Positions 1 through 7,500 of a stretch of DNA of 41,687 bases are shown here, piece after piece. The notes below the pieces were generated by a model. It did not search any database. It was not told where the DNA came from and worked only from the letters and a program-made list of their open reading frames with translations. The stretch lies in the IMG/VR virus record IMGVR_UViG_2585427754_000009, one strand, 5' to 3'. The position numbers were made by a program, and so were the translations under genes. The stretch comes from a virus. Taxonomy: Duplodnaviria > Heunggongvirae > Uroviricota > Caudoviricetes. Every line of letters starts with the position of its first letter. Positions within the stretch are counted from its first letter, which is position 1.

Positions 1-1164
1 TTACACATCATTAGTACCTTCCTTATTTTTTGACTGGGACAAATTTGGGACCGATGGGTTCAGGATCGAGTCTATTTGCCGTGCGTGTTCGGTAAGGTGA
101 TTAGGTGCAAGGTGAGCATATCGACGAACCATTTCGATAGACTCCCAGCCTCCCATTTCCTGTAACACTGACAACGGGACTCCGGCTTGAACCAGCCAAC
201 TTGCCCAGGTGTGTCTCAAGTCGTGAAATCTGAAATCATCAATACCAGCCCGTCTCAGCGCCGCTTTCCAGGCTGTGTTTGCGTCATACCGCATCTTCCT
301 TACTGTTGGCGCTTTCGTTCCGTCTGGTTTGGTACAGCTTTCCTTGTACACAAATACCCAACGGTGATGATTCCCGATTTGTTTTTTCAATACGCGACAT
401 GCAGTATCATTCAGCGCAACGCCAATTGCGCGGTTTGATTTACTCTCTTCCGGGTTTATCCATGCCACCCGGCGCTGCATATCTATTTGTTGCCATTCAA
501 GGTTGATGATGTTCGAGCGTCTTAAGCCTGTTGCCAGTGCAAATTCAACAACAGACTTTAATGGCTCCGGACATTCATCAATCAGCCTTTGTGCTTCATG
601 GGGCTCCAGCCAGCGGATCCGTTTATTCTTTGGTTGAGGCACTTTAATAATTGGTGCCTTATCCAGCATTTTCCATTCACGCTCTGCGGCTCTTAGTAGG
701 GCCTTTATAAATGAAAGATGCGTAGCCTTCGTTGCAACGGACGCTGGTTTTGGCGTGTATTCTGGAACAGGTTTCCCTTTTTTTCTGCATGCTTCTGCCC
801 TGAGTTTCCAGTTTTCCTCATGACGCCGGTTCGTCATTTTCTGCATTGCTGAATAAATTTTTGATTCAGTAATGTCTCTTAGTTGCATTCCTGCGAAATG
901 TTGAAGCCAGAATCCGATCCGGCTTTTGTCATCGTCCAGTGATTTTTTATGTGCTTTCTCTTCAAGCCACCTGACACACGCTTCCTCGAACGTTATATCA
1001 GGTATTTCACCAAGTTTGCTGACCCGCCATGCTTCAGCCTTTAGCTTGTCATGGAGTTCTGTCGCCTGCCTTTTGTCCTTTGTTCCAAGAGACTGTTTAA
1101 ATCTTTTACCGTTCGGCAATGTGAAACTGGCGTACCATATTTCACCTCTGCGGAAGAGTGACAT
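1..1164 (-). CDS. int: Tyrosine integrase, P22/SfV-type
   Basis: 387-aa ORF with stop at 1-3. N-terminus [14 protein letters not shown] and C-terminal HDLRHTWAS...MVRRYAHL (R-H-R-Y recombinase signature). Recognised from memory as P22-type Int. Last gene of the leftward operon; 5' end overlaps xis. Confidence 0.95.
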
Positions 1165-1696: not shown

Positions 1697-2058
1697 TATG
1701 CTCCAGCCTCCGGTGCTTTTGGCATTACTGCCCAGTGAGTGATATTGACGTTTTCAAGGTCCCCGACCTGAAATGTCCACTGCCATTCTCCGGTTTCTTT
1801 TTGTCCCCAGGTGTACCAGAGAGAACGCCAGCCAATTAGCCAGCCTTCTCCGTTAGCATCGAATAACAAAACACTTTCATTTGCTGGTGGCAGTTCAGTT
1901 GACACTGGTATTACTTTGTTTTCCTGTGCTGCACATTTAGCTTCAAGCGCATCGAATTTACGCACCAGGTATTCAGCATCTGTTTCATTTACTTTCAGAT
2001 CTCGCGGTACACATCTCCCACGAAGAAACCCTTCCATTTCGAAAACATTCATGCGCAT
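1696..2058 (-). CDS. Hypothetical early protein (YfdS-like, 120 aa)
   Basis: ORF in the same leftward operon; overlaps the upstream HD-domain gene by 10 bp. Confidence 0.7.
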   Translation of the reverse strand: MRMNVFEMEGFLRGRCVPRDLKVNETDAEYLVRKFDALEAKCAAQENKVIPVSTELPPANESVLLFDANGEGWLIGWRSLWYTWGQKETGEWQWTFQVGDLENVNITHWAVMPKAPEAGA

Positions 2059-2585
2059 TTGCGTAACTCCGATAACTCGTTAAAGCGTTCCATAAACATC
2101 CCGTAGGCATGGCCCGGTGCCAGTGGAATCACGTTGAACATCTCTGTTGCCGGGATACCTTCCAGTACAGGCCAGAAAGAGCCATCATCAAGCCCGAGAT
2201 CGCGGCGTTCGGTTGCCAGCATGATGAGATCGGCATATTTCACGGGCGTACTCATAACTGGGGGTAACCCGTATTTCTCACGGATTACGGCGTCTATTTT
2301 TTCTTCCATTTGTTTATAGTCAGGAAGAAGGCGTTTCAGTGGTGCGGGAATGTCCTGGCAATACGCTTCTGTTGCATCATGCATTAACGCTTCAAAAGCA
2401 AATTCCTGCGGCACCAGCTGGCTGCAAAGAACCGCATGTTGGGCGACGCTGTAGAAGTGCGAAAGATGACCGGCAAAGCGACAGATATTTGAAAGGGAAA
2501 CCGCGATATCGTTAATATCGATGTCGTCTTTATTTATCCTGTCATAATAAAAATGCTTCCCGGAAAAAGTTTTAATAAATGACAT
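2049..2585 (-). CDS. HD-domain phosphohydrolase (YfdR-like 5'-deoxynucleotidase, 178 aa)
   Basis: Internal start MSFIKTFSG with GGAG 7 nt upstream (longer ORF reaches 2612). H..HD metal-binding motif (LMHDATEAY) and further His/Asp residues typical of the HD superfamily. Confidence 0.8.
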   Translation of the reverse strand: MSFIKTFSGKHFYYDRINKDDIDINDIAVSLSNICRFAGHLSHFYSVAQHAVLCSQLVPQEFAFEALMHDATEAYCQDIPAPLKRLLPDYKQMEEKIDAVIREKYGLPPVMSTPVKYADLIMLATERRDLGLDDGSFWPVLEGIPATEMFNVIPLAPGHAYGMFMERFNELSELRKCA

Positions 2586-2712
2586 TTTGTTCTCCACGTA
2601 TATGCGCTGCACCGCGCTGAATTCTGGTAAAAAGAATCCCTCACCATCCGGCGATTATTGAGTAAATTACGTTTCCATAAATGCCCCCGCAGGGGCATTT
2701 GCAGTAATGAAA

Positions 2713-3537
2713 TCAGGCGGTGAAAGTACCAATAAAGGTTTCTACTTTGCTGTCCTTGAATTTCTCAACAAGCAGATCACGAAATTCGTTAGCCATTTCT
2801 TCCTGCACCGCCTCCAGCTGAATAATGCGCAGAACCAGTACAGGACGATCGCCAGTGATAATACTGAGGCGTAATTTAAACGGACGTTCTTTCAGACCTT
2901 CAAACGGAACGCATTTAAATTCAAATGCCACTGGCATAATGTCTTTGGTCTTCGCTTCGACAGACTCCATCAGGGAGCGTTTGCCGCTGAAGTCATTATC
3001 TTCAAAATCAGCGGTCTGGTTTGCTTCAATCGTGATTTTACGGACAGCCGCAGCCGCTTTTGTTGCCTGAATAGCGTCACCATTAGCATCAAAGCCCACA
3101 AGATAGTCGGCCCAGTCTTCAATCCATTCTGCCAGTGACTTCTGGGAGTTACGCTCGCCGTTAACAGACAACAGAGCAGAGAACGGTGCTGTCTTTTTCA
3201 GTTTGAGTGTGGCGGTGTTATCTGCGTGACCTGGTTCATCAATAGTACCCAGGTTAAGCACACTGACGGCACGCATATTATCAGCATCGATAAAGCAGCG
3301 GGTGCCTTCATCTGCAAGATCTTTAGAATAACGGGTAAAGTCATCGATGCTGGCAGTGGAAAGCGCACCACGGAAACGGAAGCGATTTAAATTAAATTTT
3401 TCCAGATCATGAATGCGGAAATTCTCAGGCAATGCCACAGCATCGGCACCAATCTTACTGATAATTTCATTAACACCCTGAGCAGAAATAAGGGCATGGA
3501 TTTGATTAATTGCGGTTGCGTCTAAGTTCTGAGACAT
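2713..3537 (-). CDS. DUF2303 / YfdQ-like protein (274 aa)
   Basis: 274-aa ORF beginning [14 protein letters not shown]; recognised from memory as the YfdQ family of CPS-53-like prophages. Same leftward operon. Confidence 0.75.
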
Positions 3538-3602
3538 AATAAGTCCTCACTATATAAAGATATTCAGTGATGAGATAAATAATCAGTTAATTAAAAACGA
3601 TA

Positions 3603-3965
3603 TTAACGACCTGCTGCGCGGAGTTTTCCGTCAGGTTCACCGGCAAGAGTCAGTAACTGTCCCTGGTCTTCCTGCAGAATAGTCAGGCGACCACCGCGAT
3701 TGACATACATCGGCGTTTCGGTGGTGTCTTCTTCGGAAATTTTCCCGCGGTTAGTCGGGCGAACATATGAGAGTTTGTGTTTGATTTTCACACGGTTCTC
3801 ATCAAATGGTTCGATTTCCAGGTTGAGTGAGACCTTACCTTTGGTTTTCGTGTTCATCACACCGGAAGCGACTTCACTGAGAACTGCGCCGATTTTGGTT
3901 TCAAATACGCCGCCGTCCAGCTCCCCGATAAATGCCTGCACATCAGTACTGCGTTCGCTAGCCAT
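3603..3965 (-). CDS. Hypothetical early protein (YfdP-like, 120 aa)
   Basis: Start chosen at MASERSTDVQ (ATG at 3963-3965) because AGGAG lies 9 nt upstream; the ORF-track start at 4214 lacks an RBS and runs into structured non-coding DNA. Confidence 0.7.
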   Translation of the reverse strand: MASERSTDVQAFIGELDGGVFETKIGAVLSEVASGVMNTKTKGKVSLNLEIEPFDENRVKIKHKLSYVRPTNRGKISEEDTTETPMYVNRGGRLTILQEDQGQLLTLAGEPDGKLRAAGR

Positions 3966-4433
3966 TTTGCTGCTCCTCATCATATCGACCCTGCAAGGCC
4001 GATTAGTTTCTCCACAAAACAGAGAAGAACACCTGCGGTGGCAGCCGCCCGGATGGATTGGGTTATGAGCCCGTCGTCCGGTGATGCTCTTCTCTGTTTT
4101 GTAAAAAGGACGGTACCAGCCGGAAGCAAGAGTACAAGCTGGTACCGCCAGGACTACACACAGCATAAAGTTGTGGTGCCGGGTGCCTCCCGGTGCCTGG
4201 CGAAGGTTGCACACCAGGCGGGTGGGTATCTACAGAAGGTCGACTGTCAGCCTCAACCTTAACCCGCGTGCGCTGAGCCGCATTCACCACAACGCTAAGA
4301 ATTCTCTCTGGTTGAAAATACTTAGCTGTTATGTGCCTGCTTTTAGCCACATCAGGCGAGGTGGACCTGGTTATTCCCCAACAACAAGGATTCGGTTAAT
4401 CTGGTTATCCCCAACAACGCAAAAGGAAAAGAA

Positions 4434-4868
4434 ATGTCCGGTAATATCTACACGCTGTACAAATCCCACTGTGAAAATGTTGGAAAGTATCGGGGCATTG
4501 AAATCAGTGGGGTAGTGTCATCAGTCGAAATAAGCAAAGTCGAATCAAGGGCAACATTACTTACTCTTCTGGACCTTGTCTTACATGAGCACCGGAAGAA
4601 ATTCGGCACTCCCTATAATCAGTTGAATGGGAAAAAGGCTCTGGTTCACCTTATTCTGATGAAGCATCACTGGATGCCAAAACAGATTAATGAGATGAAA
4701 TTTGATGAACTTCTTCTTTCAATTCAGGATGAACTCACACTTGATAAAATAAGCGTAACCGCCCAGAAATTTTTAGATTATCGAGACTGGAGATCACAAA
4801 TTCATCACTTTGATGATTTTGACGAAAATGAATGGGATCCTAATTTGTCTGCACAATATCTAAAGTAA
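4434..4868 (+). CDS. Hypothetical protein, 144 aa, no family recognised
   Basis: ORF with AAGGAAAAG Shine-Dalgarno-like sequence 5-13 nt upstream of the ATG. Opposite orientation to the surrounding leftward operon. Preceded by two 18-19-bp direct repeats. Confidence 0.5.
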   Translation: MSGNIYTLYKSHCENVGKYRGIEISGVVSSVEISKVESRATLLTLLDLVLHEHRKKFGTPYNQLNGKKALVHLILMKHHWMPKQINEMKFDELLLSIQDELTLDKISVTAQKFLDYRDWRSQIHHFDDFDENEWDPNLSAQYLK

Positions 4869-4983
4869 CATCCTGTGATAAAACCGTGATTTCCTGATCC
4901 AGTTTTTTTAAGGAGTCTATTATTTCCTGTCGATAAGACAGCACTTCACGAAGCTGGTTTATAGCTGCCAGCTTCTTTGCCAT
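4840..4983 (-). CDS. Small ORF (47 aa), possible remnant of a leftward-operon gene
   Basis: In the pre-insertion reading frame a stop lies 2 codons upstream of the IS target site, so only a 47-aa ATG-initiated ORF (MAKKLAAINQLREV...) is possible. Weak RBS. Confidence 0.25.
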   Translation of the reverse strand: MAKKLAAINQLREVLSYRQEIIDSLKKLDQEITVLSQDVTLDIVQTN

Positions 4984-5031: not shown

Positions 5032-5040
5032 TTCTGTTTT
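5032..5040. repeat. Target-site duplication (TTCTGTTTT), left copy
   Basis: Identical 9-mer at 6097-6105 directly flanks the other IS end. Confidence 0.9.
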
Positions 5041-6096
5041 GGCTTTGTTGAATAAATAAGATTTCGTGCGAACGACCCTGTAGCTGGCTGGATTTTCAGG
5101 CAATACGCACGCTTTCTGGCATCCCAGCCTTTGTCATCCTGTTCAACGCACGCACCATGGCCATAGCTTCCGCTACCTGACCATCGTAGTCACGCAGCGT
5201 CAGTGAATCTCCCAACAACTGCTTCATTCTGTACATTGCCGTTTCCGCTATCGAGCGACGGTTATATTCCGTTGTCCATTTCCACCGTGCATTGCTTCCG
5301 CTCAGCCGCTGATTAGCAACGGCACGGTTGCGGTCTGCGTACTCACCGGGCCAGTAACCTGCTCCTTTTCGGGGAGGAATAAGCGCGCTGATTTTTTTGC
5401 GGCGCAGTTCATCGTGACAGAGCCGGGTATCGTAAGCCCCGTCTGCCGCGGCTGCCCTGATTTTTCTGTGAGTCTGCCGGATAAGGCCCGGGAAGGCTTC
5501 TGAGTCCGTGACGTTATTCAGCGACAGGTCTGCACAGACAACTTCATGTGTGTTGCTGTCAACAGCAAGATGCAACTTTCGCCAGATACGACGGCGCTCT
5601 TTGCCGTGCTTTCTGACTTTCCATTCGCCTTCACCAAAGACCTTCAGCCCGGTGGAATCAATCACCAGGTGTGCGATTTCACCCCGGGTGGACGTTTTGA
5701 AACTGACATTAACCGACTTTGCCCGCTTACTGACACTGGTGTAATCCGGGCAGCGCAACGGAACGTTCATCAGGGCAAAAATGGAATCAATAAAACCCTG
5801 CGCAGCCCGCAGGGTCAGCCGGAATACGCGTTTAATCACCAGAACGGTGGTGATGGCGAGATCAGAATAGCGCTGGGGCCTTCCTCGTGATGAAGGCGTT
5901 GCCGACTCATACCAGGCCTGAATCGCTTCATCATCCAGCCAGAAAGTGAGGGAGCCACGGTTGATGAGAGCTTTGTTGTAGGTGGACCAGTTGGTGATTC
6001 TGAACTTTTGCTTTGCCACGGAATGGTCTGTGTTGTCGGGAGGATGCGTGATCTGATCCTTCAACTCAGCAAAAGTTCGATTTATTCAACAAAGCC
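5041..6096 (-). mobile_element. IS903-like insertion sequence (IS5 family), 1056 bp
   Basis: Terminal inverted repeats GGCTTTGTTGAATAAAT(A/C) at 5041-5058 and 6079-6096 (17 of 18 identical). Single transposase ORF. Flanked by a perfect 9-bp direct repeat. Confidence 0.92.
5096..6064 (-). CDS. IS903-family transposase
   Basis: 322-aa ORF ...QKFRITNWSTYNKALINRGSLTFWLDDEAIQAWY... recognised from memory as IS903/IS102 transposase (DDE). True start may be a few codons inside the ORF. Confidence 0.92.
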   Translation of the reverse strand: MKDQITHPPDNTDHSVAKQKFRITNWSTYNKALINRGSLTFWLDDEAIQAWYESATPSSRGRPQRYSDLAITTVLVIKRVFRLTLRAAQGFIDSIFALMNVPLRCPDYTSVSKRAKSVNVSFKTSTRGEIAHLVIDSTGLKVFGEGEWKVRKHGKERRRIWRKLHLAVDSNTHEVVCADLSLNNVTDSEAFPGLIRQTHRKIRAAAADGAYDTRLCHDELRRKKISALIPPRKGAGYWPGEYADRNRAVANQRLSGSNARWKWTTEYNRRSIAETAMYRMKQLLGDSLTLRDYDGQVAEAMAMVRALNRMTKAGMPESVRIA

Positions 6097-6105
6097 TTCT
6101 GTTTT
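6097..6105. repeat. Target-site duplication (TTCTGTTTT), right copy
   Basis: Identical to 5032-5040. Confidence 0.9.
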
Positions 6106-6359
6106 GTGCATTTCACACCTCCTCAAGTTATCAGTTACTTGTTGATGGGGACCAGATTGTTAAAGAGCTAAGCGTCCTGTAGGGCGCTTTTTTGTTGCTA
6201 ACGAATCATCCTGGACTTCATATGCCCCAGGCGGCTACTTCGTGGGCGTCCTGCCTGTTCGTTTTTGACATTTACTGACTGCTTACGACACATGCACCGT
6301 GTTGCAACCAGATTTTGTTGTAATCCTGTAGTTGGTCTGGAACAAAAGATAAAATTAAA

Positions 6360-6396
6360 TTGCTAGATATGCAAGTGATATTTGCGGGATATGCAA
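6360..6396. promoter_or_regulatory. Putative OL operators (two 15-bp sites)
   Basis: TTGCTAGATATGCAA (6360-6374) and TTGCGGGATATGCAA (6382-6396) match TTGCGTGATAAGCAA in the cI-cro intergenic region at 13 of 15 positions; TTGC...GCAA dyad. Confidence 0.5.
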
Positions 6397-6409
6397 ATTG
6401 ATAGGTAAT

Positions 6410-6449: not shown

Positions 6450-7142
6450 TTAATTATGTCTCTTAAGGGTTTGCGACTGACTGATTAAGACCTTTCCAAA
6501 GACCATGAATCGGTGTTCGTTTTCGCTAGTAATTCCCCATTCACGGTAAATCTGGTTATCAGAAATCACCAGCAGTTTGTCAGGAATCATTTGAAGTCTT
6601 TTAACGTATATTTTGTCATCAAAACCAAAGACATATATACCATCACCATCAAACTGATTGATGCTGACATCAACGAAGATGAGATCTCCTGGCTCAATGG
6701 TTGGACACATACTGTCCCCACGAACGTTGATAACTTTGATGTGATTGGCTGGTCGTCCGCCGAACATTGATACAGCATTATCAGTTCTGTATTCGATGGC
6801 ATGAATCACATCAATGACATCACCGCCCTGGATAAGGCCATTTCCCGCACTGGCACTGATATCCAGCATTTCAATACGGAACACATCCTTCACCTGCGCA
6901 ACATCCTCATCATTACTGTTTTTATATACAGTATTACTTTTGTGGGCAGAGGTAAAGAGATCAGCAATATCAACACCTAAGCTCTTGGCAATATTACTCA
7001 GTGTTTGTTCGGTAAATTGTTTTTGCTTACCCGTTTCTAAGCGCGAGATGTTCGCCGCATCTACTCCTATTGCTTCAGCGAGATCGGCGATTTTCATGTT
7101 CTTCGCTTGGCGAAGTTGTCTGACTCGGTTTCCTATGTTCAT
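6450..7142 (-). CDS. cI: CI-type repressor (HTH_XRE + S24 LexA-like peptidase)
   Basis: N-terminal HTH (KIADLAEAIGVDAANISRLETGK), Ala-Gly cleavage site (SASAGNG), catalytic Ser (VRGDSMCPT) and Lys (VKRL). Divergent from cro. Confidence 0.9.
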   Translation of the reverse strand: MNIGNRVRQLRQAKNMKIADLAEAIGVDAANISRLETGKQKQFTEQTLSNIAKSLGVDIADLFTSAHKSNTVYKNSNDEDVAQVKDVFRIEMLDISASAGNGLIQGGDVIDVIHAIEYRTDNAVSMFGGRPANHIKVINVRGDSMCPTIEPGDLIFVDVSINQFDGDGIYVFGFDDKIYVKRLQMIPDKLLVISDNQIYREWGITSENEHRFMVFGKVLISQSQTLKRHN

Positions 7143-7239: not shown

Positions 7240-7500
7240 ATGCAATCACCATTACGAAATGTGCGTAAGGCGCATGGTTTCACTTTGCAGCATGTTGCTG
7301 CGGGTGTTCAAGTCAATCCAGCGACGTTGAGTCGTATTGAGAGGCTGGAGCAGATTCCATCTATCGAGCTTGCAGAACGTTTAGCCAATTTTTTTAAGGG
7401 TGAAGTCAGCGAAATGCAGATTCTTTATCCGGCACGTTTTCAATCTAGCCAAAACCAGAATGGGTTTAAACCACAGGAACAGGAGGTGAACCGTGGGTAA
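7240..7500 (+). CDS. cro: Cro-like HTH_XRE regulator
   Basis: 86-aa ORF with HTH (FTLQHVAAGVQVNPATLSRIERLE); GGAGGG 4 nt upstream of the ATG; divergent from cI. Confidence 0.85.
   Translation: MQSPLRNVRKAHGFTLQHVAAGVQVNPATLSRIERLEQIPSIELAERLANFFKGEVSEMQILYPARFQSSQNQNGFKPQEQEVNRG

Follow-up and report, generated by a model that had tools for sequence, protein, structure and literature searches.

Gene Content and Organization of the Locus

The stretch described here (positions 3966–4433) lies in a window of 41,687 nt, which is the whole stretch of phage DNA that was analyzed (IMG/VR record IMGVR_UViG_2585427754_000009). On the minus strand it is followed by yfdP, which is named "protein YfdP" by PGAP in a near-identical genome and matches phrog_204, and on the plus strand by an ECs1072-family accessory gene that had no match in PADLOC. 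The ~470 bp probably represent two cassettes placed back to back, a DicF-like small-RNA cassette on the minus strand and a promoter/5′UTR cassette on the plus strand (Table 1). The small-RNA cassette sits within the early-left operon, which runs from pL beside cI to yfdP, yfdQ, yfdR, xis, and int, and an IS903-like element lies between pL and the cassette. No tRNA or tmRNA gene was found by ARAGORN in 3800–4600.

Table 1. Features identified in and next to positions 3966–4433 of the window.
Feature	Position	Strand	Evidence or remarks
yfdP	3603..3965	-	First gene downstream of the small-RNA cassette; RBS GAGGAG 3977..3972; ORF list
Small leader hairpin AUCGGCCUUGCAGGGUCGAU	3984..4003	-	Immediately upstream of the yfdP RBS; minimum-energy fold
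89-nt hairpin	4014..4102	-	20-bp basal stem, branched tip; contains the 15-bp inverted repeat
Intrinsic terminator	4103..4149	-	Stem GGCGGUACCAGC / GCUGGUACCGUCC (4149..4108) and UUUUU 4107..4103
Single-stranded linker	4150..4169	-	Candidate seed and candidate RNase E site; conserved UGCUGUGUGUAGUC at 4165..4152
Pseudoknotted core, STnc100 "type B" (~125 nt)	4170..4293	-	Rfam, covariation, minimum-energy fold
P1	4293-4285 with 4178-4170	-	Closing stem of the core
P2, with bulged A	4281..4266	-	
Pseudoknot	4260-4254 (AAGGUUG) with 4209-4203 (CAACCUU)	-	
P4	4218-4212 with 4202-4196	-	
P5	4193-4189 with 4183-4179	-	
P0 hairpin GCUAAGUAUUUUC...GAGAAUUCUUAGC	4294..4326	-	Directly 5′ of P1; minimum-energy fold
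Block C, conserved and promoter-like (GCCTG...CAGGC)	4335..4357	+	-35-like TTAGCC 4343-4348
Two tandem 34-bp units	4360..4427	+	Contain the direct repeats 4367-4385 and 4401-4418
ECs1072-family accessory gene	4434..4868	+	NCBIfam NF033230, 157.8 bits; phrog_5286

An earlier reading of the region, made from the letters and their open reading frames (hereafter the sequence-only reading), had found no convincing ORF here and had allowed that a homology search might reveal a coding gene. The first point holds and no such gene appeared: all six frames are interrupted by stops, substitutions relative to phage ST64B show no codon-phase signal (19/21/21), indels relative to the same phage measure 1, 1, and 20 nt, and the ORFs in the gap matched no family in Pfam or NCBIfam. 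These results argue against a decayed protein-coding gene, as does the finding that changes preserve base pairs rather than codons. Such a gene is therefore extremely improbable, although PGAP places a frameshifted pseudogene ("hypothetical protein, frameshifted") over the equivalent of 3980–4290 on the minus strand in related genomes and hypothetical proteins are annotated there in several phage records.

The repeats described in the sequence-only reading are all present, with coordinates accurate to within one base. The two inverted repeats singled out in that reading are not the heart of the structure; one of them is the intrinsic terminator and the other the hairpin downstream of it. The real core of the structure (P1, P2, P4, P5, and a pseudoknot, 4293..4170) had been missed, together with a perfect 9-bp inverted repeat (4170–4178 with 4285–4293) that forms its closing stem.

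The Pseudoknotted Core

At gathering level (47 bits for STnc100, RF02076), Rfam reported nothing for the region; below it, the minus strand gave a full-length STnc100 match of 41.5 bits (E = 1.7e-7 with 801 nt searched; E = 8.8e-6 over the whole window). An Rfam scan had been proposed with the sequence-only reading, as had a folding and covariance search, which likewise revealed stems that pair and covary in phage relatives. A whole-window Rfam scan at a permissive threshold returned this STnc100-like element and no other; a chance snoRNA match was also returned by that scan. Motif searches found no second core in the window, and no counterpart was found in the pR operon.

P1, P2, P4, and the pseudoknot covary among ~35 phage relatives, with compensatory changes at five pairs in P1 and three in P2. 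In the P1/P2 alignment of 34 sequences, 92% of cells are paired, a level reached by none of 500 shuffles. P4 and the pseudoknot were tested without an alignment because the variable middle region could not be aligned reliably with MAFFT, and the pseudoknot scored 229 compared with 166 ± 6.5 in permutations, none of 5000 being as high. The core helices are reproduced by the minimum-energy fold. A hairpin is present at the place of P0 in ST64B too, with different arm sequences.

The core combines invariant loops with the pseudoknot; viral contigs that carry a 22-nt motif from it number more than 120. A plain base-pairing small RNA would not usually be so tightly folded and so highly conserved. 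A full-text search of the literature for the core sequence gave no match.

Linker, Terminator, and Long Hairpin

The linker motif UGCUGUGUGUAGUC is kept in the window, ST64B, and phiES15 despite divergent flanking hairpins, and the whole linker is exchanged in modular fashion for another allele, AGCCACUGCUU. Potential targets within the prophage did not stand out, as 14-mers complementary to the linker occur at chance level in the window and duplex energies of the linker with 124 start regions were no better than those of shuffled seeds.

The terminator stem corresponds to a perfect 10-bp inverted repeat of the sequence-only reading; its first arm had been placed correctly (4111–4120), and the second arm is at 4138–4147, one base from the position given. 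ST64B carries a hairpin of different sequence followed by a U-run in the same place. Downstream, the perfect 15-bp inverted repeat (4014–4028 with 4088–4102) is present as reported and extends into 25-nt arms (4014–4038 with 4078–4102) that are 84% complementary.

The resulting 89-nt hairpin, placed between the small RNA and yfdP, may be an RNase III site, a second terminator, or both. Comparison of 18 variants shows 98.9% pairing in the stem, where one pair has changed in a compensatory way (G-C to A-U) and single changes are G-U-compatible; as minus-strand RNA 356 of 360 cells pair, compared with 321 of 360 as plus-strand RNA. That the hairpin acts chiefly as a second terminator for both directions, or as a boundary of recombination in the mosaic at the DNA level, and is not an RNase III site, is rather improbable. 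An A-run and a U-run flank the stem on both strands (ACAAAAC...GUUUUGU), the hairpin forms the left edge of a module exchanged between phages, and Stx, cdtI, and mEp460 phages have only 3966–4150 in common, all of which would suit that explanation. However, 89 nt with a branched tip far exceeds the usual size of a terminator hairpin, the variants maintain pairing as minus-strand RNA only, and dicF offers a precedent in which RNase III cuts a long helix immediately past a terminator.

The cassette is modular. Upstream of an identical yfdP there may be a type-B core, a type-C core, or no core, with either linker allele, and the terminator and hairpin stay the same in these combinations of core type and linker allele.

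Folding was much more stable than expected for minus-strand RNA 4110..3966 (z = -6.4, 0/200 shuffles) and also for 4330..4095 (z = -4.2). Judging from the strand of the Rfam match, the U-run after the terminator stem, and the occurrence of G-U pairs, the minus strand is the functional RNA strand. Thus the structured RNA suspected by the sequence-only reading is present, as fold, Rfam, and covariation agree, but it belongs to the minus strand and the yfdP operon and not to the plus-strand ORF. A promoter scan called no sigma-70-like minus-strand promoter directly upstream of the core, so production of the small RNA would depend on pL or on an unrecognized promoter. Weak minus-strand candidates can be seen there by eye (e.g., CTGATG-N18-TAACAG), and a sigma-54 site, also considered by eye, was rejected because the pattern is one base off and conservation is absent.

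The Probable Plus-Strand Promoter Cassette

Block C was found in more than 120 viral contigs. Among 124 unique copies its -35-like hexamer reads TTCACC or TTAACC; 80 copies have TATnCT 16 nt past the hexamer, with a short 5′UTR and varied plus-strand genes thereafter. The hexamer at the corresponding -10 position of the window, ACCTGG (4365–4370), is unlike a -10. The second of the two tandem units carries a -10-like TAATCT (4397–4402) with TTCCCC (4374–4379) 17 nt upstream and the SD AAGGA, and this -10-like hexamer is preserved as TAAnnT in related cassettes. The units are 79% identical between 4360–4378 and 4394–4412. We attribute the direct repeats to tandem duplication of a -10/5′UTR unit; TRF did not call the 34-bp duplication, and a stricter promoter scan did not call a plus-strand promoter. 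The promoter/5′UTR cassette, which is widespread among phages, appears to serve the opposite-strand ECs1072 gene.

The direct repeats at 4367–4385 and 4401–4418 exist as described in the sequence-only reading, except that the second ends 15 nt before the ATG at 4434 instead of 16. An exact 18-mer repeat would be expected 0.01 times in the window. That reading treated the repeats as protein-binding sites, possibly for DnaA, that together with a plus-strand structured RNA control the ORF at 4434, and we consider this very unlikely. The repeats do fall in the promoter/5′UTR region, and thus in the control region, of the downstream ORF, and both are altered jointly in ev207-type cassettes (CCCCTACA), which is compatible with a single recognizing factor. 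A dedicated operator pair is nevertheless a less apt description than tandem duplication, and the repeats are unlike the operators of the prophage. The likeness of the repeat core to a DnaA box is at chance level (36 matches to TTATNCACA with at most one mismatch in the window compared with 32.4 expected) and is confined to the second repeat; the first copy has an additional T within the DnaA-box-like sequence. In addition, the strand evidence given above points to minus-strand RNA, and the inverted repeats travel with yfdP and not with the plus-strand gene.

Other assignments were rejected. The direct repeats are not CI/Cro operators, being absent elsewhere in the window and unlike the TTGC-N7-GCAA-like operators near cI. 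Block C was judged by eye to be unfit in spacing or composition for a CRP site, a nut/boxB-like hairpin, or a terminator; a terminator-like call for block C in L118 is valid for one subclass only.

The tandem duplication, with block C ahead of it, resembles the moron promoter cassettes of lambdoid phages (sieB-type genes opposite the pL operon), which are likewise self-contained, with a promoter and a short 5′UTR, and likewise drive an accessory gene opposite the early-left operon; the same block precedes many unrelated genes, including a putative superinfection-exclusion gene in ev207. Different from those cassettes, the usual -10 position in the window lacks a -10-like sequence and the -10/5′UTR unit is duplicated.

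Relationship to STnc100/PasD and HK022 put

The probable small-RNA cassette is kin to the STnc100/PasD RNAs and laid out like the E. coli dicF locus. It is a variant of already known RNA types and not a novel class, and its RNA architecture, covariation, homology, and modularity are established by the comparisons described here.

STnc100 and PasD1/PasD2 of Salmonella, EHEC, and EPEC prophages share the core architecture, and PasD and STnc100 have been judged related (bioRxiv 10.64898/2026.05.13.724894). All STnc100 core helices are present in the window (P1, P2, P4, and P5, the last as CCGGG-AGGCA-CCCGG adjoining the P1 3′ strand), and P5, CACCGGGAGGCACCCGGCACCA, is identical to the STnc100 consensus. 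As in STnc100/PasD, the core is followed by a linker and an intrinsic terminator, the latter falling within the span of 20–60 nt past the core expected for STnc100, and the elements are likewise prophage-borne and oriented with the surrounding operon. EDL933 has 11 STnc100 copies; for 10 of these the transcriptome reads exceed 300, and one copy has been verified by Northern blot (PMC5331693). In addition, the stability of PasD1 and PasD2 requires Hfq, with targets known from RIL-seq (PMC8550237).

The differences are also clear. The type-B copies tested all scored below the STnc100 gathering level (33–41.5 bits compared with 207.7 for a type-A copy). P2 is rebuilt in the window (GCGGC..GC-CGC compared with CCCCC..GG-GGG of STnc100), which also has one extra helix. 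The window element lies in the early-left operon, whereas STnc100/PasD lie in the late operon after Q or stx. Many type-A copies carry TTGACA-17-TAAATT, which ends ~7 nt before P1; for the window element no promoter of its own can be seen.

The put RNA of HK022, which as a nascent RNA brings about processive antitermination, is also a structured pL-operon RNA upstream of terminators in a lambdoid phage without an evident N protein. An identity with put was rejected: HK022 had no match when searched with the STnc100 model, put is a 70-nt RNA of two stem-loops without a pseudoknot (PMC9378689) and thus different in architecture, and it occurs in two copies (putL and putR) compared with a single copy in the window.

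Relationship to the dicF Locus of Qin

Like the window cassette, the DicF locus (RF00039) of the Qin prophage of E. coli K-12 is embedded in a lambdoid early operon close to the immunity region. In Qin, as in the window, a core with P1, P2, P4, and a pseudoknot precedes a short RNA made of linker plus terminator, and a long helix suited to RNase III follows directly past the terminator; the window thus has a linker-plus-terminator RNA in the early operon, a structured 5′ domain, and a long helix after it. The Qin elements are a sister core (L341, 2251–2365), dicF (2383–2435), and the long helix (2436–2463). From P1 to the U-run (4293..4103), the window RNA measures 191 nt, and a 190-nt RNA ending at the DicF 3′ end would begin at the base of P1 of the sister core. 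In length, the sister core plus DicF agrees with the published DicF species of 190 nt; RNase III forms the 5′ end of that species, and RNase E produces the 53-nt form (bioRxiv 10.1101/2023.04.14.536235).

The gap between dicF and dicB in Qin is filled by a type-B core (34.4 bits). Its closing helix of ~28 bp spans the RNase III site of the 72-nt DicF 3′ end, an RNase III product (PMC5069750), and P1, in its extended form, includes pairing to the dicB SD region.

Aligned with DicF, the linker and terminator of the window correspond to it in position and, in part, in sequence via the mEp460-type allele, through which the terminator 5′ arm and the start of the loop resemble the DicF terminator. 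The DicF model aligned in full at 4162..4108 with 16.7 bits (E = 0.8), short of its gathering score of 48. The linker, as candidate seed, differs from that of DicF, and in a crude duplex-energy test of pairing with the ftsZ start region shuffles did at least as well (fraction 0.93). The core ahead of the small RNA is type B with P5 in the window and type C without P5 in Qin; past the terminator there is a plain hairpin in the window and a second core in Qin; and the downstream gene is yfdP in the window and dicB in Qin.

Proposed Mechanism and a Possible Role of the Core in cis

Based on the analogy with DicF and PasD, transcripts from upstream would end at the terminator and yield a long form of ~191 nt, from P1 at 4293 to ~4103. 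An RNase E cut in the AU-rich linker would then give a short RNA of ~65 nt consisting of linker and terminator, which, again as for DicF and PasD, may bind Hfq and pair in trans with mRNAs via UGCUGUGUGUAGUC. RNase III might cleave read-through transcripts within the long hairpin and so detach the yfdP message from the small RNA.

We regard it as unlikely that the core is instead a cis-acting leader (a put-like antiterminator, or a riboswitch-like or protein-binding attenuator) that controls either the passage of RNA polymerase beyond the tandem terminator and hairpin to yfdP, xis, and int or the translation of the next gene, with the small RNA being just a terminated by-product. The type-B copies examined are all within operons, co-oriented with and just upstream of the next gene, namely yfdP in the window, kil in phiES15, tciA in P1, dicB in Qin, and ORFs in Kp4882 and Enterobacter. 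Those of P1, Kp4882, Qin (upstream of dicB), and Enterobacter stand directly before an RBS without a terminator, and judged by this placement they look more like cis-acting leaders; the pairing of the extended P1 helix with the dicB SD region in Qin agrees with such a role. Moreover, no yfdP promoter was found between the terminator and the gene, and none of the genes from pL to the cassette evidently encodes an N-like protein, so expression of the early-left genes would need read-through, and the invariant loops and pseudoknot are reminiscent of ligand- or protein-binding RNAs.

Several observations nevertheless favor the small RNA over a leader. The type-A relatives lie just upstream of lysis genes, carry a promoter and a terminator of their own, and are abundant as discrete RNAs in lysogens; an efficient antiterminator at that place would be harmful. 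HK022, the put paradigm, has no match, and put lacks a pseudoknot (PMC9378689). The window has one copy, with none in the pR operon. There is no conserved alternative pairing between core and terminator; an anti-terminator pairing of the P4 3′ arm with the 5′ flank of the terminator is possible in the window and, by inspection, absent in ST64B, and was rejected. Finally, the core can be missing or replaced by type C while linker, terminator, and hairpin persist.

There is also a small chance that the core is a self-standing functional RNA domain, not a passive 5′ extension of the small RNA, and that this domain is common to STnc100, PasD, 190-nt DicF, the dicF-dicB spacer, and the P1 tciA leader. 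Such a domain might serve RNase III and RNase E as a place to dock and process the RNA; alternatively, its partner might be RNA polymerase, a ligand, or a host factor, and binding would then set the amount of transcription or translation that reaches the next gene (dicB, tciA, kil, or yfdP). If so, a widespread class of cis-regulatory RNA would be added to enterobacterial phages, and this would explain how early-left operons without N pass their terminators.

Distribution and Significance

The RNA has stayed unannotated because every type-B and type-C copy tested scores under the Rfam thresholds. Recognizing the cassette links STnc100/PasD, the long form of DicF, and the dicF-dicB spacer of K-12; no prior statement joining them was found in the literature examined, and the Pas preprint makes no mention of DicF, pseudoknots, or RNase III, nor of yfdP, ECs1072, thrW, or SfV. 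The swapping of linker alleles on one scaffold suggests a family of DicF-like prophage regulators with different targets, and K-12 provides a ready model for testing the role of the conserved pseudoknotted domain. Part of the 1.3-kb stretch at 3600–4900 is present in about half of complete E. coli genomes (2871/5426), and most of it in 275 genomes only.

Prophage context of the gap

The gene order of the window is that of an SfV/SfIV-like lambdoid prophage (see table), and E. coli DS26-1 carries a near-identical prophage without the IS, adjoining tRNA-Thr and proA. By inspection, operator-like repeats of the form TTGC-N7-GCAA at ~6360-6400 look like OL operators flanking a leftward promoter. 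These repeats place pL just left of cI and directed leftward, so that the minus strand of the gap would belong to the early-left operon, which continues into yfdP.

The IS903-like element (1056 bp; terminal inverted repeats GGCTTTGTTGAATAAAT...; 9-bp target duplication TTCTGTTTT, copied at 5032-5040 and at 6097-6105) interrupts a minus-strand ORF of 68 aa (phrog_1744; ATG at 6111) after codon 5. Because this ORF is located just downstream of pL, the IS lies between pL and the RNA cassette described here; related genomes are without the element. A terminator-like hairpin on the plus strand (AGCGTCCTGTAGGGCGCTTTTTT, 6165-6195) could be where the ECs1072 transcript stops in IS-free prophages.

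Features of the window and of the dicB operon in the K-12 Qin prophage (locus L341)
Locus	Feature	Position	Strand	Remark
Window	integrase	1-1164	-	
Window	yfdR	2049-2612	-	
Window	yfdQ	2713-3537	-	
Window	yfdP	3603-3965	-	
Window	470-bp gap	3966-4433		
Window	ECs1072-family gene	4434-4868	+	
Window	IS903-like element	5041-6096		
Window	cI	6450-7142	-	
Window	cro	7240-7500	+	
L341	ydfC			first in operon order
L341	type-C core	2251-2365		between ydfC and dicF
L341	dicF	2383-2435		
L341	type-B core	~2452-2585		34.4 bits, STnc100 model; fills dicF-dicB gap
L341	dicB			after type-B core

A structured, non-coding RNA on the minus strand

The gap is non-coding, as the sequence-only reading had held: stops interrupt every frame, its ORFs match no protein family, and no codon-phase bias is seen (substitutions relative to ST64B fall 19/21/21 by codon phase, with indels of 1, 1 and 20 nt). 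A PGAP "frameshifted hypothetical protein" pseudogene covers the RNA region in comparison locus L001 (4381-4691, equal to window 3980-4290) and likewise in related genomes, and in several phage records a "hypothetical protein" is called across it; these calls look like mis-annotations of structured RNA.

All repeats reported earlier were recovered by a repeat search. The 15-bp inverted repeat has arms that extend to 25 nt, the 10-bp inverted repeat is real with its second arm at 4138-4147, one base from the earlier position, and the direct repeats (4367-4385 and 4401-4418) form the portion of a 34-bp tandem unit that matches best. A further inverted repeat, 9 bp long and perfect (4170-4178 / 4285-4293), had been overlooked. 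Minus-strand RNAs of the gap fold far better than shuffled sequences (z = -6.4 and z = -4.2). The proposal of a structured RNA plus a control region was right in kind, but the RNA is on the minus strand and the wrong repeats had been singled out.

The Rfam scan and covariance comparison that had been suggested both support such an RNA. Nothing was reported at the gathering level, and in a permissive scan STnc100 (RF02076) matched the minus strand full-length, at 4323..4100 (41.5 bits, E 1.7e-7; gathering score 47). The 22-nt motif CACCGGGAGGCACCCGGCACCA was found in more than 120 IMG/VR contigs, which yielded 111 different extended sequences and 81 different cores. The collected cores share the order P1, AAU, P2, variable insert, P4 and P5, in which P1 is the closing stem (GUUGUGGUG / CACCACAAC in the window), P2 has a bulged A and a UNNGC loop, and P5 reads CCGGG-AGGCA-CCCGG. 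Across a 34-sequence alignment, 92% of cells are paired, changes on both sides occur in five P1 pairs and three P2 pairs, and 0 of 500 shuffles match the observed covariation; the invariance of P5 reflects its use in collecting the sequences.

The P4 loop also forms a pseudoknot with 6-11 nt directly 3' of P2, pairing AAGGUUG (4260-4254) with CAACCUU (4209-4203) in the window and quite different sequences in other lineages (ATCAGCG / TGCTGGT; AGACTGACAAA / TTTGTCAGTCT; GCCAGGTCG / TGACCTGGC). In an alignment-free test, the summed helix length with each sequence's own partner was 229 versus 166 +/- 6.5 after permutation, a value reached in 0 of 5000 permutations. The Rfam STnc100 structure line contains no pseudoknot, and the preprint relating PasD to STnc100 (bioRxiv 10.64898/2026.05.13.724894) makes no mention of one.

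Three core types and their relatives

The window core belongs to a type, here termed B, in which P2 is rebuilt as GCGGC..GC-CGC. Besides the window, type-B cores and their STnc100 scores are those of phiES15 (40.6 bits), ST64B (35.1 bits), Klebsiella phage Kp4882 (35.0 bits), Qin (34.4 bits) and P1 (33.4 bits); the type-A core of Stx2 phage Min27 scores 207.7 bits. Type-C cores, identified in mEp460-type phages, F1055 and Qin, have P1, P2, P4 and the pseudoknot without P5, and were unreported by Rfam at two loci scanned at E <= 0.01 and in Qin at E <= 1.

Ten of the 11 STnc100 copies in EDL933 have more than 300 transcriptome reads, and one copy was verified by Northern blot (PMC5331693). PasD1 and PasD2 are Hfq-stabilised and have RIL-seq targets (PMC8550237), and PasD and STnc100 are regarded as descending from one ancestor (bioRxiv 10.64898/2026.05.13.724894). 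Type-A copies belong to the late operon, where they follow stx or Q in operon orientation, many with a TTGACA-17-TAAATT promoter ending ~7 nt before P1. The canonical copy of Min27 (L131, 3034-3293), just after stx2B, abuts the known opposite-strand anti-sRNA AsxR (88.1 bits), so that both converge on one spot. The related Salmonella phage ST64B (L002) carries the isrK small RNA in its rightward early region (5231-5307, 64.3 bits); the window has no isrK match.

Linker, terminator and long hairpin

Directly 3' of the P1 3' strand follows a single-stranded linker, the centre of which, UGCUGUGUGUAGUC (4165..4152), is conserved among phages of E. coli, Salmonella and Cronobacter while the adjoining hairpins differ. 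As minus-strand RNA, the 10-bp inverted repeat is an intrinsic terminator, a GC-rich stem with UUUUU after it; ST64B shares the U-run at this position and carries another hairpin. The 15-bp inverted repeat is part of an 89-nt hairpin directly after the terminator. Among 18 variants, its 20-bp basal stem is 98.9% paired (356 of 360 cells as minus-strand RNA versus 321 of 360 as plus-strand RNA), with one compensatory change (G-C to A-U) and all single changes keeping pairing via G-U.

Upstream of 80 identical yfdP genes, terminator and hairpin are constant while core B, core C or no core is combined with linker allele 1 or 2, a shuffling compatible with a short small-RNA module whose seeds can be swapped. 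In L187, an IMG/VR locus, and its relatives, the whole core is absent upstream of yfdP and block C, from the right-hand part of the gap, is joined almost directly to linker, terminator and hairpin; such natural variants show that the short module is able to exist without the core.

Relationship to the dicF locus of Qin

The element joins a type-B STnc100/PasD core to a DicF-like module whose linker is new, and is without annotation in current pipelines. The main gain is that STnc100/PasD, the long DicF species and the dicF-dicB spacer become connected, along with a pseudoknot supported by covariation.

Scanning genomes for the P2 motif of type B gave a match in Qin. The K-12 MG1655 dicB operon (NC_000913 1649250-1649585) contains two unannotated members of the RNA superfamily (see table), and the closing helix of its type-B core, ~28 bp, extends to the dicB Shine-Dalgarno region. 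The 5' ends of the 190-nt and 53-nt DicF species are generated by RNase III for the former and RNase E for the latter (bioRxiv 10.1101/2023.04.14.536235). DicF, which binds Hfq and represses ftsZ, xylR and pykA, also has a 72-nt form produced by RNase III cleavage 19 nt beyond the terminator (PMC5069750). From these published lengths we infer two placements: a stretch of 190 nt ending at the DicF 3' end would start at L341 2246-2251, where the type-C P1 has its base, and 19 nt onward lies 2454, within the ~28-bp helix. By length, the type-C core directly upstream of dicF therefore fits the 190-nt species.

The window shares this arrangement: P1 to U-run spans 191 nt (4293..4103), the linker-plus-terminator module occupies the position of DicF, and a long helix follows the terminator. 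The DicF model aligns end to end, weakly (16.7 bits), with the linker-terminator, and an mEp460-type allele, UUUGGCGGUACCAGUUUGUAC, bridges the latter and UUUGGCGGUAUCAGUUUUAC of DicF. Contigs in metagenome bins labelled Veillonella parvula and Collinsella sp. (L333, L336) contain the E. coli dicF-dicB sequence nearly unchanged, most likely through binning contamination by Escherichia DNA.

Possible mode of action

We interpret the element as a small RNA embedded in an operon. Termination would produce a ~190-nt form, RNase E would generate a ~65-nt short form acting in trans, and RNase III would act on the long hairpin of read-through transcripts. This reading has weak points: a promoter scan revealed no minus-strand promoter adjoining the core, the IS903-like element separates the window cassette from pL, searches within the window and against ftsZ found no target, and the strongly conserved pseudoknotted domain is not accounted for. 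That the core is instead a cis-acting leader or attenuator seems unlikely, and is retained because several type-B cores are directly before an RBS without a terminator (P1 tciA, Qin dicB, and ORFs in Kp4882 and Enterobacter).

In phage P1 (L003, NC_005856 ~70071-70206), the type-B core is part of the ban operon and immediately precedes tciA, and a hairpin overlapping the P1-helix end could hide the tciA Shine-Dalgarno; the P1 record lists a "dicF-like region" in this operon, farther upstream. Two Enterobacter loci (L334, L335) have a good promoter-like site, TTAGAT-17-TTAAAT, ending ~7 nt before P1 of the type-B core and an ORF starting ~25 nt after the core, the layout of a 5' leader and not of a small-RNA gene.

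For the family in general, put-like antitermination is unlikely: lysogens contain type-A members as discrete, abundant RNAs, and these are encoded just upstream of lysis genes; HK022 is without a match to the STnc100 model.

A plus-strand promoter cassette

The right-hand 100 bp of the gap is a module of its own. Block C (4335-4357) is present in more than 120 viral contigs, and its 124 distinct copies have a -35-like TTCACC or TTAACC, followed 16 nt later by TATnCT in 80, then by a ~35-nt 5'UTR with a CA-rich hairpin loop, AAGGA and ATG. Many unrelated plus-strand genes are downstream, including a putative superinfection-exclusion gene in ev207. The window subclass has ACCTGG, unlike a -10, at the -10 position and two tandem copies of the -10/5'UTR unit, the second of which keeps TAATCT (4397-4402; TAAnnT in relatives) with TTCCCC (4374-4379) 17 nt upstream. 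This placement implies that the first direct repeat overlaps the -35 region and the second lies at the predicted mRNA start. The promoter assignment was made by inspection, and a stricter promoter-scan rule makes no call.

The direct repeats, previously proposed to control the downstream plus-strand ORF, accordingly appear by inspection to lie in its control region, the block-C promoter/5'UTR module; the suggested DnaA-box resemblance of their core is at chance level. Both repeats read CCCCTACA in ev207-type cassettes, a joint change that fits either within-lineage duplication or recognition by a common factor. An STnc100-like core is present on the other strand within 320 nt in 54 of the 124 block-C copies; the two modules often lie next to each other, back to back.
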